From sequence record OR539220.1: DNA of 64,000 nucleotides, one strand, 5' to 3'. This DNA is from Escherichia phage vB-Eco-KMB40. Both the position numbers and the translations under genes were made by a program. The notes under the pieces were generated by a model that searched no databases, was not told where the DNA came from, and was given only the letters and a program-made list of their open reading frames with translations. This document shows, in pieces, positions 39,615 through 54,897 of the stretch (the stretch's first letter is position 1; each line of letters starts with the position of its first letter).

Positions 39615-40085
39615 TTAATCATGTGTCCACACCCCATCGGTATTTGACCAAAGTCGCTGATTATCTGATCCTCGCCACAGCTTTTTAGTCGGAAGATTTT
39701 TCTCATACTTCCCATCAATAATAACATCAACATATTTAAGCATTTCTAGTTGTTTAATATCTTCAAACTTATATCCTGTCCACAACCAAATGCTTTTATT
39801 GGGATAAAGATTTTTAATAGTTTGAACCACAGAGTGAATCACGTCTCTGTTATCAGGATAAAGAGGGTCACCTCCGGTTATAGTCAATCCTTCTATATAA
39901 TCATTATTCAAACATTCAATTAATTGTTCTAGTGTTTCACCAGTGAATGGAACACCATTTCTAGCATTCCATGTTGATTTATTATAACACCCTTCACATT
40001 TATGCAAACACCCCGTAACGAAAAGAACGACCCTGCAACCAGGGCCATTCACAAAATCGCAAGGATAAAATCTATCATAATTCAT
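39615..40085 (-). CDS. nrdG: anaerobic RNR activase, radical SAM (156 aa)
   Basis: CxxxCxxC-type cluster CLHKCEGC; 156 aa as T4 NrdG. Confidence 0.85.
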   Translation of the reverse strand: MNYDRFYPCDFVNGPGCRVVLFVTGCLHKCEGCYNKSTWNARNGVPFTGETLEQLIECLNNDYIEGLTITGGDPLYPDNRDVIHSVVQTIKNLYPNKSIWLWTGYKFEDIKQLEMLKYVDVIIDGKYEKNLPTKKLWRGSDNQRLWSNTDGVWTHD

Positions 40086-41899
40086 TGGTGTTTAACCCTA
40101 TGCATGATTTCTTTATTTTTACCGAGATTAAATCCACGTTCGTTCGGATTTCCCAAATAACCACATGTTCTTCTTATTGTGTTCATCTTTTTAGGGTCAG
40201 TTTCTCCACAAATAGAACAAACAAATCCGTTTTCAGTAGGAGTCATTTCATGGGTACTTCCGCATGTAAAACATTTATCTACCGGCATATTAACACCAAA
40301 ATAATCTAAATGTTGTGCAGCATAATCCCAGACAGCCTCAAGACCCTTTAAATTGTTTTTCATATCTGGAAGTTCAACATAAGAAATGTGACCGCCTGTC
40401 GCAATGAAATGATAAGGCGCTTCACGAGAAATCTTTTCAAACGGAGTAATATTTTCTTCTACTGAAACGTGGAAACTGTTAGTGTACCAGCCTTTATCGG
40501 TAACATCTTTTACACTTCCATATTTTTCTGTATCAAGTTTACAGAAGCGATAACAAAGGTTTTCAGCAGGAGTCGAATATAAACTAAAAGCAAATCCGGT
40601 TCTTTCAGTCCACTGCTTAAGACGAGCATTCATTTTAGTTAAAATTTCTTGTCCAATATCACGACCGACAAGAATATTCAATTCATGAATACCAATGTAT
40701 CCTAAAGACACTGAACTTCTACCGCTTTTAAATAACTCAATTATATCATCATCAGGTTTAAGACGAACCCCGAATGCACCTTCTTGGTAAAGAATAGGAG
40801 CAACAGTCGCTTTAACTCCTTTTAAAGAACTAATTCTACACATCAAAGCTTCAAAACATAAATCCATTCGCTCATTGAACAATTCGATAAATTTCTGTTC
40901 ATTGAACTGTGTTCCAATATAAGAATCTAATGCGATACGAGGAAGATTCAGTGTTACAACACCGAGATTATTACGTCCATCAAGAATTTCATTACCAGTC
41001 GAATCTTTCCATACACCCAAGAAACTACGGCAACCCATTGGAGAAACAGGAATAGATGAACCTGTGATAGCTTTATTGTTCTTAGCCGAAATGATGTCAG
41101 GATACATTCTTTTGCTTGCACACTCTAGAGCAAGCTGCTTAATATCATAGTTCGGGTCGTCTTTATAAAGATTAACACCTTCTTCAACGAACATAACAAG
41201 CTTAGGGAAAATAGGAGTTATCCCATCACGACCAAGACCTTTAATACGATTTTTCAGAATTGCTTTCTGAATCATTCGTTCAGTCCAGTCAGTTCCCGTA
41301 CCAAATGTAATTGTTACAAAAGGAGTCTGTCCGTTTGAACTAAAGAGAGTATTTACTTCATATTCATAAGCTTGGAATGCATCGTATACATCTTTTTCTG
41401 TTTTAGATTGAGCATAATTCAACGCGTCAGTGATTTGCCATTTTTCTGCGTCCTCAATATGTTTTGCATAGGTGCGTTTAACATAAGGAGAAAGTACTTT
41501 ATCTACATTTGCAAAAGTCGTTCCGCCATATTGATGGGAAGCAACCTGTGCAGTAATTTGTGCCATAATTGCAGTAGCAACACCGATTGATTTAGGAGTT
41601 TCAATCTGTGCATTACCGAGCTTAAATCCGTTTTCAAGCATTCCTTTTAAATCTACTAAACAACAATTAGTAAATGGAAGAGCAGGGGAATAATCAATAT
41701 CGTGGAAATGGATAATTCCGCTTTCATGCGCTTTCATAATAAAAGACGGGACCATATTTTTGGCAATGTGTTTAGACACAATACCAGCCATAAGGTCCCG
41801 TTGAGTTGGAAAAACACGAGAATCTTTATTAGCATTCTCGTTTAAAAGGTCTTTATTAGTTTTATGAATCAATCCTTCAATTTCTTTTTCAATTGTCAT
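40082..41899 (-). CDS. nrdD: anaerobic ribonucleoside-triphosphate reductase, uninterrupted (605 aa)
   Basis: 605-aa continuous ORF, C-terminal Cys cluster; no intron interruption. Confidence 0.9.
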   Translation of the reverse strand: MTIEKEIEGLIHKTNKDLLNENANKDSRVFPTQRDLMAGIVSKHIAKNMVPSFIMKAHESGIIHFHDIDYSPALPFTNCCLVDLKGMLENGFKLGNAQIETPKSIGVATAIMAQITAQVASHQYGGTTFANVDKVLSPYVKRTYAKHIEDAEKWQITDALNYAQSKTEKDVYDAFQAYEYEVNTLFSSNGQTPFVTITFGTGTDWTERMIQKAILKNRIKGLGRDGITPIFPKLVMFVEEGVNLYKDDPNYDIKQLALECASKRMYPDIISAKNNKAITGSSIPVSPMGCRSFLGVWKDSTGNEILDGRNNLGVVTLNLPRIALDSYIGTQFNEQKFIELFNERMDLCFEALMCRISSLKGVKATVAPILYQEGAFGVRLKPDDDIIELFKSGRSSVSLGYIGIHELNILVGRDIGQEILTKMNARLKQWTERTGFAFSLYSTPAENLCYRFCKLDTEKYGSVKDVTDKGWYTNSFHVSVEENITPFEKISREAPYHFIATGGHISYVELPDMKNNLKGLEAVWDYAAQHLDYFGVNMPVDKCFTCGSTHEMTPTENGFVCSICGETDPKKMNTIRRTCGYLGNPNERGFNLGKNKEIMHRVKHQ

Positions 41900-42369
41900 T
41901 TTAAACTCTTTCTAAGCTGCTTCTTGAATGAAGCTATTAATTGTGTTTTGGTGTCAGATTCATTATATTCAAATCCTCTTTGAAGCATCTCAGCCATCAT
42001 TTCCTCTTTTCCTAAACGAGAAAATTCCTTTGATTTATCTCCAACGAAGTTAGGGTGAATATTATTTTGGGTGTAATCGGATTTTAAATAAGTAAGTAAA
42101 TTTTCTAACCATTCAAGATAATCAACCCCTTGTCCCTTTAAGCCAGAACGATTAAATTTATGCTTCATTTGACCTTCTGCGGCATTGCAGAGATTACAAA
42201 GCAATCCACGTACCTTTCCTGCTTTTGGTCCATTTAATTCATGGTCATGGTCGAGGTGATTAGCTTGAACATCAGGATTTAGTTCTCGTTGGCAAATTAA
42301 GCATTTACCGTTTTGTGCATCATAAAATTTCTGTTTTTCTTCTTTATATAATTTGCCAGTCAATAACAT
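41896..42369 (-). CDS. 49: endonuclease VII, Holliday junction resolvase (157 aa)
   Basis: matches T4 gp49 as recalled; 157 aa. Confidence 0.9.
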   Translation of the reverse strand: MLLTGKLYKEEKQKFYDAQNGKCLICQRELNPDVQANHLDHDHELNGPKAGKVRGLLCNLCNAAEGQMKHKFNRSGLKGQGVDYLEWLENLLTYLKSDYTQNNIHPNFVGDKSKEFSRLGKEEMMAEMLQRGFEYNESDTKTQLIASFKKQLRKSLK

Positions 42370-42411: not shown

Positions 42412-42897
42412 TCAAGTATTGTAAAACATTTGATTCAATCGCTTATATTGCCGAATCTTTTGGTCAGAAAAAGAAATTTGGGTTTCAAGCCATTCAATAT
42501 ATTCTGCCGCAGCTTGCATCAAATTTCCTTCATAGCCATCGTTATTTTCTTGTGCAGCTAATTTAGCTAATGCGTATGAAATACGTTCACCTTGAAAATC
42601 AGCTTTAGGCTTCTGAACAACTTGATTAGTTCGCTCTACAACTTCTTCAATTTCGCCATTTTCAACGGATTCAGTATTCCATAAGCACCAATACGTAATT
42701 GGCTTATCATAGATATTAATAATCTTTCCGTCGGAAAGTTCAATTTCAATAATTCCAGTATCAGGCTCTATATCATCTTCACATTCTTTTGCAAGTTCAC
42801 GAACTTTAAAGACAGCACCTGCGCTAAGTTCCGGCCAGTAATTACACAGCCCTGTATCAGCACGATTAATTCTAAACCACTTATCTACTGTAATCAT
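42412..42897 (-). CDS. pin: PinA, Lon protease inhibitor (161 aa)
   Basis: 161 aa from ATG at 42897 with SD GGAG; position after gene 49; track start is TTG. Confidence 0.6.
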   Translation of the reverse strand: MITVDKWFRINRADTGLCNYWPELSAGAVFKVRELAKECEDDIEPDTGIIEIELSDGKIINIYDKPITYWCLWNTESVENGEIEEVVERTNQVVQKPKADFQGERISYALAKLAAQENNDGYEGNLMQAAAEYIEWLETQISFSDQKIRQYKRLNQMFYNT

Positions 42898-42937
42898 GTC
42901 CCATCTCCATATCAATTAAGTCATTTATCGTTGGTTC

Positions 42938-42967
42938 ATTATATACTGTTTCTTCATCAGTGTAAAC
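42938..42967 (-). promoter_or_regulatory. early sigma70-type promoter
   Basis: GTTTAC at 42962-42967, TATAAT at 42938-42943; upstream of pin. Confidence 0.5.
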
Positions 42968-43020
42968 CGGTTCTTCCGGCTCTGGCTCTACAGTTTCCCA
43001 TCTAGCCGCCCACCAAGGTT

Positions 43021-43341
43021 TTATAGCGTAATCCATTCTCGTACTGTCTGAGTTACTACACGTTCATGGGGCTCTACTAGTTCAACAGTCGGAACTGCAT
43101 AATACCAGTCAGAATGATAAGAACCTGACCGAGATTCATTTACAGCCACATGTACATTATGTTTTGGACTAAAGTAAACACACTGACGATATTGACATTT
43201 ACCATCTTGCACCCAGTCTTCTATTTCGACAGGTTTAAGATAATCGGAAAAATCGAAATCATAGTTTTCCGAAAATGCATCATGGTCTTCAATGATTTCG
43301 CTCAGAACTGCATCAACATCTAATTTATTTTCAATAGTCAT
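43021..43341 (-). CDS. hypothetical acidic protein (106 aa)
   Basis: ORF between nrdC and pin. Confidence 0.45.
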   Translation of the reverse strand: MTIENKLDVDAVLSEIIEDHDAFSENYDFDFSDYLKPVEIEDWVQDGKCQYRQCVYFSPKHNVHVAVNESRSGSYHSDWYYAVPTVELVEPHERVVTQTVREWITL

Positions 43342-43351
43342 TTTTCACCAA

Positions 43352-43561
43352 TTAATTTCGCAATTTATTAAGTTCTTCATCATCAATCCAGGATTCTAGT
43401 CCTGATGGCAGGTCACATTCAATTTCCCAAAGAAGTTCTTCAATTTTCTGAAGACGATCTAGTTCTTCAGCAGGAATAGTAACCATCGACGGAGCTCTTG
43501 CTACATTAATATCGTAAATCATATTTACCCCAGTTTGACCATACAATCGCCGTATTTCCAC
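43352..43561 (-). CDS. hypothetical small protein (69 aa)
   Basis: ORF between nrdC and pin. Confidence 0.4.
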   Translation of the reverse strand: MEIRRLYGQTGVNMIYDINVARAPSMVTIPAEELDRLQKIEELLWEIECDLPSGLESWIDDEELNKLRN

Positions 43562-51130: not shown

Positions 51131-52144
51131 TCATTTATAATAACTTCGGTGGTTTTCAAGATAGACCTTCTCAAGGAAGTCATCCCAGAAACTCATGTCT
51201 ACTTTTTGCTGCATACCGTTCTTAGAAGCTTCAGTAGATGCTGCTTCTACTTGATCGACCACATCTTCCAAAAACTCTTGAACTGTTTTAAATGGATGTT
51301 TACCCAACTTCACGTCGAGAATAAATGGAGCATCTTGGAGTGGATAAACCAAGTCACCAGTTTTGTAAATTTCCAATAGTTGGAGTCCACCACGACAAGC
51401 ATGACTCAGAGCTTTCCAGTCAATGCCTTCATTAGCTTCGGCTTTACGAGCACGTTCACCATATTCAGCATCTAATTTATTCAGTGACTGCTTAAGCTCA
51501 ATAAGAGAAAGTGTTGTCTGATATTTACGACCCAACACAGTGTAGAACGTTTGCGGGCCTGTTTTCTCGTGATTATGGAACACCCATTCACAGAATTCGT
51601 TTTCTGGAAGACGATGCTTAATATCTTCAACTTTAGTGCGACGCTGCTTAATAGAACCATCTTCTTGGTAATCAACCCATTGCTCGGGGATTTGATTAAC
51701 TACTTTCAATACATCACGTAATGCAGCCAAACGAGAACCCTTGACACCGTATTTAGAAGCTTGCTTGCGAACATATCCTAAATAGGATTTCATGTTAGTT
51801 GTATAAAAACGAGAACGGTTGTCTTGAATAAACTTCCACACATCAGGCAAATCAGATTTAACCACTAGTTCAGGTGGAGTGTGAAGCATATCCAATGCTA
51901 CAGTTTCACCATCTGCTGCTAATTTAAAGAAATATTTAAGACTGTATAGTTCATGGTCAATATCATCTTTAGTGTTTTTAGATGATGTGTTGTTAGTGTT
52001 TTTACTCATGTGCTCTTTGACATTTCCGATAAGAATATCACGAGCAGGAGGAACAAAAATTTCTTTAAAATCTACATCAGATTCTGGGGTAGAAGTTCCA
52101 TAAAGATGACTACCAAAATAGCTTTTCATTACTGTTTTCATCAT
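51131..52144 (-). CDS. Pol-beta-superfamily nucleotidyltransferase-like protein (337 aa)
   Basis: GS-x10-DVD signature in FGSHLYGTSTPESDVDF. Confidence 0.45.
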   Translation of the reverse strand: MMKTVMKSYFGSHLYGTSTPESDVDFKEIFVPPARDILIGNVKEHMSKNTNNTSSKNTKDDIDHELYSLKYFFKLAADGETVALDMLHTPPELVVKSDLPDVWKFIQDNRSRFYTTNMKSYLGYVRKQASKYGVKGSRLAALRDVLKVVNQIPEQWVDYQEDGSIKQRRTKVEDIKHRLPENEFCEWVFHNHEKTGPQTFYTVLGRKYQTTLSLIELKQSLNKLDAEYGERARKAEANEGIDWKALSHACRGGLQLLEIYKTGDLVYPLQDAPFILDVKLGKHPFKTVQEFLEDVVDQVEAASTEASKNGMQQKVDMSFWDDFLEKVYLENHRSYYK

Positions 52145-52614
52145 TCAGCCTTATATTCAATAACAGGACATACTTTAGCTTTACGAGCTTTTAAAAATTC
52201 AACGATAATCGATTTCTTGGGTTGAATAGGAGGTAAACCTTTATACGCCCTATCAATATTTTCTATGTGTAAAGCATAATCCTTTTTCCATTTATAATCT
52301 TTATATTTTTCATGCAAATGCGCAGGAATAACAAATGAACCGATAATAAGTAAAACAACCAAAAGCGCAAGTATAAATGCTGATGGAAGAAGAGTCCATA
52401 AACTACCGAAAATAAGCCAACGTTGTAGGCTTTCTGCACAAATAATTGTTAGACCTGCGAGTATAGTACATCCGAAAAAAGAAACGAAAAATGTAGGGAT
52501 AACAATAGACCAAAAGTATGCACACAGTGTCTTAGGTCGTTTCCATTCGTCGTTAAACAGTTTGAATAATTTATAGTGCCAAGAGTTTTCATTAATAATC
52601 ATAATTATAATCAT
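52141..52614 (-). CDS. membrane protein (157 aa)
   Basis: three hydrophobic segments. Confidence 0.5.
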   Translation of the reverse strand: MIIIMIINENSWHYKLFKLFNDEWKRPKTLCAYFWSIVIPTFFVSFFGCTILAGLTIICAESLQRWLIFGSLWTLLPSAFILALLVVLLIIGSFVIPAHLHEKYKDYKWKKDYALHIENIDRAYKGLPPIQPKKSIIVEFLKARKAKVCPVIEYKAE

Positions 52615-53132
52615 CCTTTCATTGAAGGTGTAACAGTTGTTAAATACTTAATCATAGCCTCAGCTTCTGATTTTGATAATGAAATTTCTCCATTGTTTTG
52701 ACGAATAGAAATAAAATCCGGATGACGGTCACCACCAGCTTTTAAAACACACATATAAGTATCAGTTTCATCTTCAATATTTGAAATGATTGAAGCAGTT
52801 CCACATGAATGCGGTTTTTGATAAATCAATACAGCTTTTCTTCCGCCATTTGACTGTTCATAAACTTTTAATACATCAAACAAATCACTTCTTTTATCAA
52901 TAGCTAAAATGTTATTTTCATCTTCAACGTTAAATCCTTCGGATACTTCATAAAGTGTTACCCATAAATCGCCAATATCAATAACAGCGTTCACTTTTCC
53001 ATGACTTTCAAGAGCATGACAAATTTTCTTGATTTCGTCATAACTCATTTTAATAATATCATCTCCTTGAATAAGAAAGATGTCATTTTTAAATTCAACA
53101 CGAATTAAACCACTTCCACTTGAAATAAACAT
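52611..53132 (-). CDS. hypothetical protein (173 aa), paralogue of the disrupted gene downstream
   Basis: C-terminus EAEAMIKYLTTVTPSMKG resembles EAIALKNYLDSVIPTMISK of 53139..53540. Confidence 0.5.
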   Translation of the reverse strand: MFISSGSGLIRVEFKNDIFLIQGDDIIKMSYDEIKKICHALESHGKVNAVIDIGDLWVTLYEVSEGFNVEDENNILAIDKRSDLFDVLKVYEQSNGGRKAVLIYQKPHSCGTASIISNIEDETDTYMCVLKAGGDRHPDFISIRQNNGEISLSKSEAEAMIKYLTTVTPSMKG

Positions 53133-53138
53133 ATTTCC

Positions 53139-53748
53139 TCACTTTGAAATCATAGTTGGAATGACAGAATCAAGATAATTCTTTAGCGCAATAGCTTCGT
53201 CTTTGGTAAATGTGACAATATGTGCTCGAGAATCATCATTTTGGCGAACAAGTACGACATCGCCATCTTCATAAGAAGTCTTGACATCCAAAGTCGTAGT
53301 ATAGTTTGCAGCTACTGGATTAATAATGCTAGCACCGCGATCTTTAGCCCATTGAAGTTTAACCTTTTCGGGTGTTTCGACTGTTTCAGATTCCAAGAAT
53401 TCTTTCACCTTGGCAACGAATGTTGCCCAATTGTTGATAGAAAGACACATAAATTCAGTTTCAATAGGCAACGAATGTTGCCCAATTGTTGATAGAAAGA
53501 CACATAAATTCAGTTTCAATATTACCGCCGTAAAGGCCACGATAAAAACGAACTTGGAGGTCGCCTGTAATATTAGTTACACCGGTAACTCCTGAGGGAG
53601 CATAAGATAAAATCGCAGCCAGTTCCATAGGAAGAATAGTAATACTATCGTCTTCCTGCGTCAGAACGTATACATTATCACGTTTTTCGATAACCAGGTC
53701 ACCGAACAAATCAGTTGTTTCAATTACAGCTTTCATATTATTTACCAA
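53139..53748 (-). pseudogene. gene split by 55-bp tandem duplication frameshift (tracks 53461..53748 and 53139..53540)
   Basis: both ORFs encode IETEFMCLSINNWATFVA from the two repeat copies; removing one copy gives a single ORF of about 185 aa. Confidence 0.7.
53412..53521. repeat. perfect 55-bp tandem direct duplication (53412-53466 and 53467-53521)
   Basis: ggcaacgaatgttgcccaattgttgatagaaagacacataaattcagtttcaata present twice head to tail with no mismatch. Confidence 0.9.
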
Positions 53749-53923
53749 TTAAAGTTTCAATATAAGAATCAAGATTTACTTTAGCTTCTTCCATAAGAAT
53801 TTTGTATTTAATCTTGTTAGCATGTCCGGAGAAAGCTGATTCATCAATAATTGTTGATGTATGAACAGCTCTACTATACGTCTCAATTAATTCTCTTAAT
53901 TTAAAAGCCTGCTCACTTGTCAT
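53738..53923 (-). CDS. hypothetical small protein (61 aa)
   Basis: ORF overlapping start of disrupted gene. Confidence 0.4.
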   Translation of the reverse strand: MTSEQAFKLRELIETYSRAVHTSTIIDESAFSGHANKIKYKILMEEAKVNLDSYIETLIGK

Positions 53924-54027
53924 TACATACTCCTTTGAACCATATCAATAATGTTATTCACCAGATTATAAGTAAACATTGGGTAATTATATTGAATCAT
54001 CACATACACAACAAACAAAACTTTCAT
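53923..54027 (-). CDS. possible hydrophobic leader peptide (34 aa), not in ORF track
   Basis: MKVLFVVYVMIQYNYPMFTYNLVNNIIDMVQRSM; SD AAGGAG; first ORF after promoter at 54056. Confidence 0.3.
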   Translation of the reverse strand: MKVLFVVYVMIQYNYPMFTYNLVNNIIDMVQRSM

Positions 54028-54055
54028 TCTCTTCTCCTTGGCAGTTGACAAGATT

Positions 54056-54085
54056 ACTATACCATAACCTTGCCAACTTGTAAAC
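54056..54085 (-). promoter_or_regulatory. early sigma70-type promoter
   Basis: GTTTAC at 54080-54085, TATAGT at 54056-54061. Confidence 0.5.
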
Positions 54086-54087
54086 CA

Positions 54088-54261
54088 TTAAATGGCGTTT
54101 TCAATAAAATTCTGAAGCTTTGTGTGAGCATCAACCATGATTTTCATTTCTTCTTTGGCGAAAGCTGTACCTCTTTCCCGAGAAGAACATTCATAGTCAG
54201 AAACTGCATTAGCATATTCTTCAATTAGTTTCATTAAAAACATCTGCTTTTCAGTTTTCAT
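54088..54261 (-). CDS. hypothetical small protein (57 aa), not in ORF track
   Basis: MKTEKQMFLMKLIEEYANAVSDYECSS...; SD AGGTGG. Confidence 0.4.
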   Translation of the reverse strand: MKTEKQMFLMKLIEEYANAVSDYECSSRERGTAFAKEEMKIMVDAHTKLQNFIENAI

Positions 54262-54445
54262 TATTCCACCTAATCATTTCAAGATATTGAACTAACTTAG
54301 CTTTAGATTTATCCAAATCCTTTTTAGCTGTTTCTATACCGTCGTATGAATATCCTTCACAATGCTCAACTGCTAATTGATATGAATCTATTTCAATATC
54401 ACGTGCTAATTTAATGATTTTTTCAAACTGTTCATGTGTTAGCAT
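54251..54445 (-). CDS. hypothetical small protein (64 aa)
   Basis: ORF in pre-rI cluster. Confidence 0.4.
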   Translation of the reverse strand: MLTHEQFEKIIKLARDIEIDSYQLAVEHCEGYSYDGIETAKKDLDKSKAKLVQYLEMIRWNNEN

Positions 54446-54447
54446 AC

Positions 54448-54687
54448 TTAAACTCTCGTATTATGATCGATAATTTCATCAAGAAACATATCTAACGCTT
54501 CTAAAGCATTATCAACTTTAGTTTCAAAGTCTTTAATGCCTTTATTCGAAATACCCGATGAATACCAAGCAAAGTCAATCAGCTCTTCATCTGCTTTACG
54601 AATTGAAGCCACTAATTCCTTGATTTTATCTGCTTGCTCTATACTAATCATTATTCCACCACATATGACAGAGAGAATATTGCACAC
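54448..54687 (-). CDS. hypothetical small protein (79 aa)
   Basis: ORF in pre-rI cluster. Confidence 0.4.
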
Positions 54688-54839
54688 GCCATGTGAGTTG
54701 CAACTTCATCACACATATTATAACGTTTCTTAAGAAGTTCTACAAGTTCTTCACTAGTAACTTCATCCATGTCGACGAAAAAATCACCATTAATGATGAC
54801 GTAGATATTTCCTTCTTGATTAAGTGCTTCAATTTTCAT
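54651..54839 (-). CDS. hypothetical small protein (62 aa)
   Basis: track ORF trimmed to ATG at 54839 with SD GAGGAG, below promoter at 54868. Confidence 0.4.
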
Positions 54840-54867
54840 GATGTTCTCCTCTTTATCCGATAGTTGT

Positions 54868-54897
54868 ATAGTATCACAGCTCAAACGGAAAGTAAAC
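54868..54897 (-). promoter_or_regulatory. early sigma70-type promoter
   Basis: GTTTAC at 54892-54897, TACTAT at 54868-54873. Confidence 0.5.

Follow-up and report, generated by a model that had tools for sequence, protein, structure and literature searches.

The perfect 55-bp tandem duplication that splits a minus-strand gene in the genome record of Escherichia phage vB-Eco-KMB40 (OR539220.1; 166,966 bp) very probably does not exist in the phage itself and represents an untrimmed SPAdes end overlap that was moved inside the sequence by rotation. The repeat can be accounted for without invoking a real mutation or ribosome hopping. Unless another record is named, positions refer to the window, by which we mean the whole stretch of 64,000 nucleotides that was analysed. 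The window is part of the genome of a T4-like phage (Tequatrovirus), with rIIA as the opening point, and its start lies within 6 bases of position 1 in other T4-like records opened at rIIA.

The repeated unit, GGCAACGAATGTTGCCCAATTGTTGATAGAAAGACACATAAATTCAGTTTCAATA, is 55 nt long, occupies 53412-53466 and is followed directly by an exact second copy at 53467-53521. The original prediction had described a perfect duplication at these positions, and both TRF (period 55, 2.0 copies, 100% matches) and exact comparison bear this out. The periodic run comprises exactly 110 bp and extends by 0 bp on either side; this check of the periodicity in both directions thus gives 0 bp of microhomology at the repeat end points. 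The unit begins with GGCAACGAATG and finishes with TTCAATA, and the letters at the junction between the copies are ...TTCAATA/GGCAACG..., within the junction stretch CAGTTTCAATAGGCAACGAATG. The first copy, to which, like the second, no strand is assigned, is interpreted as the start of the original SPAdes contig, its first 55 bases (the last 55 on the other strand), and the second follows the join 53466/53467. This repeat is the sole TRF match across the 64-kb window and also the sole perfect tandem duplication there with a period of 15-400 bp. An exact repeat of 55 bp cannot have arisen by chance. A perfect hairpin with a 6-bp stem, GGCAACgaatGTTGCC (GGCAAC-gaat-GTTGCC), is located exactly at the start of the unit, at 53412-53427 and again at 53467-53482. 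The probability of finding a hairpin at the unit edge by chance is about 0.008 (approximately 0.8% of window positions); we treat its position as a post-hoc coincidence with no known link to a contig break point.

The extra copy adds 55 nt, a length that is not divisible by 3; it thus shifts the reading frame, and the gene is annotated as two fragments. The minus-strand open reading frame that ends at 53461 reads ...GGNIETEFMCLSINNWATFVAY up to its stop codon; translated through the first copy that it meets, it gives ...IETEFMCLSINNWATFVA, then Y and the stop at 53461, and the other frame gives the same peptide. The second minus-strand frame, 53139..53540, reads ...LPIETEFMCLSINNWATFVAKVKEF... 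and carries on to 53139. The translations therefore agree with the earlier claim of a frameshift into two frames that share the repeat peptide. In the deposited record the artefactual 5′ fragment (53461..53736, minus strand) comprises 91 amino acids from its ATG, ends in ...ATFVAY before the stop and is WPJ71543.1, while the artefactual 3′ fragment (53139..53450, minus strand) comprises 103 amino acids from an internal ATG, MCLSINNWATFVAKVKEF..., and is WPJ71542.1; the mechanical open reading frame of the latter reaches up to a GTG at 53540. An exact-sequence look-up returned these two accessions as the exact 91-residue and 103-residue fragments. Deletion of one copy yields a single open reading frame, as had been proposed, with a length of 180 amino acids from the ATG or 184 codons from an upstream TTG in place of the proposed length of about 185 amino acids. 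The true gene thus restored (53139..53736, minus strand; 543 bp with one copy removed) encodes a protein that is 100% identical to URY13247.1 of Shigella phage ESh25 and WAK44261.1 of Escherichia virus CAM-21. It belongs to the y05I-like family, for which both Pfam domains have to exceed their gathering scores: PF24449 (T4_y05I_N) scores 110.2 bits against a cut-off of 24.9 and PF24448 (T4_y05I_C) scores 64 bits against a cut-off of 27. The restored protein also matches phrog_1502 (E = 1.8e-66), and its gene corresponds to T4 mobD.1.

The affected gene is situated between nrdC.11, which encodes an RlaP-type nucleotidyltransferase, and rI, in the slot that is labelled mobD.1 in T4 according to a note in the CAM-21 record. 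The nrdC.11-rI region is variable, and T4 has different genes there. The adjacent gene at 52611..53132 (minus strand) encodes a full-length paralogue of 173 amino acids, which also contains PF24449 and PF24448 and is untouched by the repeat. The original prediction had restricted the resemblance between the two proteins to the C-terminus; the paralogy holds, and it extends over the whole length (28% identity, E = 4e-8). An intact gene of 177 amino acids occupies the mobD.1 position in KMB39 (OR539219, 1808-2341) and KMB42 (OR539221, 3992-4525), where it is a divergent allele with approximately 48% amino-acid identity. The last 25 or so residues (KDEAIALK.YLDSVIPTMISK) are near-identical between this allele and the window gene, which suggests, as judged from the sequences, a possible recombination boundary within the gene. 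Two observations on the annotation of the neighbourhood were made in passing. The window contains a run of small minus-strand open reading frames of 57-79 amino acids at 53738-54884; one of 61 amino acids matches DUF7438 (PF24219), for which its counterparts in related loci have precomputed matches, and the RefSeq name of this protein, 'helicase loader', apparently comes from phrog_4859 and seems doubtful for a protein of 61 amino acids. In RASTtk-based records the genes from nrdC.8 to nrdC.11 (51131-52144 and the upstream nrdC.x genes of the window, and other loci, including those of KMB39 and KMB42) are named 'thioredoxin', a label that covers a 337-residue protein with an RlaP nucleotidyltransferase domain (PF10127) and that probably spread from the gene name nrdC.

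Relatives of KMB40 carry the unit once. ESh25 and CAM-21 show 100% identity with positions 53000-53900 of the window, and the corresponding span measures 846 bp in both, compared with 901 bp in KMB40. A 176-bp stretch around the repeat is matched by 225 records, among which the best 30 listed all span 121 bp rather than 176; a single copy is reported for more than 220 T4-like records, including the two that are locally identical, with the spans viewed for the best 30 of the 225. The unit likewise occurs once in all six public contigs that encode an identical neighbouring protein, and the 180-residue gene is called intact in four of them. Among 50,697 phage records none matches a 48-mer with the junction at its centre, nor does IMG/VR contain a 36-mer that crosses the junction. 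The comparison with T4-like homologues that had been put forward as a check thus returned one copy in the relatives examined and none with two.

If the repeat came from the assembly pipeline, further genomes released in the same study would be expected to show it too. Five siblings of KMB40 (KMB47, KMB41, KMB35, KMB36 and KMB14) were scanned in full for perfect tandem duplications whose period lies between 15 and 400 bp; the T4-like KMB22, 23, 26, 39 and 42 as well as KMB25, 37, 38, 43 and 46 lay outside this full scan. One perfect 55-bp tandem duplication each was found in the Vectrevirus KMB47 (OR424385, 41879-41988), the Murrayvirus KMB41 (OR539216, 21484-21594) and the two Kagunavirus genomes KMB35 (OR525704, 41411-41520) and KMB36 (OR525703, 41155-41265), and none in the Vectrevirus KMB14 (OR424384), the latter being a point that we count against an artefact. 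With KMB40 included, a single perfect 55-bp repeat is present in five of six genomes from four unrelated genera and one laboratory pipeline. The units in KMB47, KMB41, KMB35 and KMB36 are unrelated in sequence to one another and to the KMB40 unit, the sites are unrelated as well, and in each of these four genomes annotated coding sequences are split or truncated by the repeat. No 55-bp tandem repeat was found in 11 control loci, all of them short (nine from other sources together with the KMB39 and KMB42 stretches). KMB36 also has, at 39976-40012 of OR525703, approximately 2.3 perfect tandem copies of a 16-bp unit, which are unrelated to the 55-bp artefact.

Relatives were checked at three of the repeat sites, those of KMB40, KMB47 and KMB35. 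At the KMB47 site they span 446 bp against 501 bp and at the KMB35 site 396 bp against 451 bp, which corresponds to a single copy in both cases, and an unbroken match at these two sites is found only in the KMB records themselves. The KMB47 comparison was made by a search of the collection, as the tail-fibre genes of KMB14 and KMB47 diverge after approximately 290 nt. The repeat of KMB47 interrupts a gene that is named tail spike in relatives, and removal of one copy gives an open frame of 577 codons; in KMB35 the same operation turns a frame of 63 codons into one of 104. As deposited, the tail-spike annotation of KMB47 (OR424385, 41776-43543) consists of a 57-residue stub at 41776-41949 and a distant fragment at 42854-43543; in LL11, a relative of KMB47, an intact 'tail spike protein' is annotated at that site.

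The published description of the genomes is consistent with an origin of the repeat in assembly. KMB40, listed as OR539220 in Table 1 of that study, was assembled with SPAdes 3.10.1 and then subjected to 'genome zeroing' on a reference phage, and the methods do not mention the trimming of overlaps at contig ends (PMC11162368). Overlaps of this class have been documented: the SPAdes contig of the T4-like phage 132 had 55-bp overlapping ends that needed trimming (PMC8483715), and guidelines for finishing phage genomes describe k-mer end overlaps of 55, 77 or 127 bp on circular contigs (PMC5923482). These share with the KMB40 repeat its perfection, a length equal to k, the use of SPAdes, a permuted phage genome and a position that is independent of genes; they differ in that they sat at contig ends and were trimmed, whereas the KMB40 overlap is internal and mimics a gene-splitting tandem duplication. 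In the sequence of events that we propose, the circularly permuted T4-like genome would form a cycle in the SPAdes de Bruijn graph, which would be printed as a linear contig with identical first and last k bases, the final k being 55 here, a standard value. This contig would then have been re-opened at rIIA, the start of the T4 reference, by cutting and re-joining without trimming of the overlap, and the old contig ends would thereby have become an internal 55-bp tandem of the form ...U/U..., with the join 53466/53467 inside the mobD.1-like gene.

We infer two parts of this account, namely the lack of trimming and the use of 55 as the final k despite 2x300 reads. The automatic k series of SPAdes on 2x300-bp reads normally ends at 127, not 55. 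For the final k to be 55, the values of k must have been listed by hand, the reads must have been short after trimming, or SPAdes must have run in a non-default mode (single-cell or metagenome); PMC11162368 does not specify which. The recurrence of a 55-bp repeat in four of the five siblings indicates empirically that 55 is the length which this pipeline produced, and the zero microhomology together with the arbitrary site fits an arbitrary contig break. Five marks by which such an artefact is recognized were found: two perfect and adjacent copies, a length equal to an assembler k, SPAdes followed by re-opening, recurrence in siblings and absence from independent sequences of this locus.

It is very improbable, by comparison, that the repeat is a recent real duplication in the KMB40 stock which arose when replication slipped or switched templates, the hairpin being a conceivable trigger, and inactivated a dispensable mobD.1-like gene. 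The gene sits in the variable nrdC.11-rI region, and a full-length paralogue adjoins it, so that its loss might be tolerable; the unit starts exactly at the hairpin, and the mobD.1-like gene on a contig of ERR14047520 has a frameshifted N-terminus. Short tandem-duplication mutations that shift the frame are known from classic T4 rII genetics and typically arise between short direct repeats. The KMB40 repeat resembles the rII duplications in being short, in tandem and frame-shifting within a non-essential gene, and is unlike them in having 0 bp of microhomology; nor would duplications of the rII type have any reason to measure 55 bp in five unrelated genomes of one laboratory. The direct repeat at the end points by which slipped-strand events are recognized is thus absent, and slippage was rejected as the mechanism, the quasi-similar TTTCA motifs being out of register. 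The hairpin was likewise rejected as a trigger, as the sibling repeats of equal length need none. Further evidence against a real duplication is its length of exactly 55, a standard SPAdes k, the perfect repeats of equal length in four of five siblings from three other genera, and the position of the KMB47 repeat in a tail-spike gene that a plaque-forming phage should need. The repeat is also private to the KMB40 record, although ESh25 and CAM-21 are otherwise locally identical to it. T4-like phages package by headful, and we discarded as implausible a genuine short direct repeat at the genome termini, since it would have to measure an identical 55 bp across four genera, including a T4-like phage. 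Concerning the ERR14047520 contig (Logan, 2452-2994), the frame disruption lies near the N-terminus of the mobD.1-like gene, of which 144 amino acids are called, and could be a real variant or a metagenome assembly error. Where the original prediction had offered a recent duplication mutation or an assembly artefact, the artefact is thus supported by SPAdes assembly with rotation, by four of five siblings and by the single-copy relatives, and the mutation is not.

A 55-nt ribosome hop between the copies, comparable to that of T4 gene 60, by which the full-length protein would still be made, had been called formally possible; we consider it extremely improbable. Every codon of the first copy recurs 55 nt downstream, so that GCC/GCC would serve as matched take-off and landing codons, a UGA stop stands one codon past the last shared codon GCC, and that GCC is also where a small hairpin (GGCAAC-AUUC-GUUGCC) ends. 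However, matched codons, a nearby UGA and the hairpin are all automatic products of duplicating this stretch, and no homologue examined has the extra 55 nt, so that conservation of the gap is lacking. The T4 gene 60 bypass is alike in its gap of approximately 50 nt (50 nt, coding gap), matched edge codons, a nearby stop and its occurrence in a T4-type phage. The gene 60 gap, in contrast, is conserved, involves no duplication and needs a nascent-peptide signal as well as a stop that adjoins the take-off codon. In KMB40 the stop is separated from the take-off codon (GCC, UAU, then UGA), and no obvious basic motif of the KYK/RR type was found by eye in the upstream peptide ...RFYRGLYGGNIETEFMCLSINNWATFVA. 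A gene-60-like mRNA structure was rejected: the mRNA across the repeat folds only modestly more stably than shuffled sequences (z = -2.4) and shows only the small hairpin that is already present in the single-copy gene. The repeat, moreover, is already explained as an assembler artefact. For a hop to yield some full-length mobD.1-like protein, the KMB40 repeat would have to be physically real and its match in length to the 55-bp sibling repeats coincidental, a combination to which we give almost no credence. Were it true, a bypass element akin to that of gene 60 would have only just arisen at this locus.

With the repeat attributed to the untrimmed overlap, the finding has no biological importance and its practical value lies in data quality. 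OR539220 and at least four siblings (OR424385, OR539216, OR525704 and OR525703) each carry 55 spurious bases that break genes, which makes five GenBank records to correct. Fragment proteins such as WPJ71542.1, WPJ71543.1 and the KMB47 tail spike enter the databases, where users may take them for recoding sites, pseudogenes or the outcome of recent mutation. The overlap error has a cheap and general warning sign, namely a perfect tandem repeat, 55, 77 or 127 bp in length, within a phage genome that has been rotated. As for the phage itself, its mobD.1/y05I-family gene is almost certainly an ordinary, intact gene of 180 amino acids.
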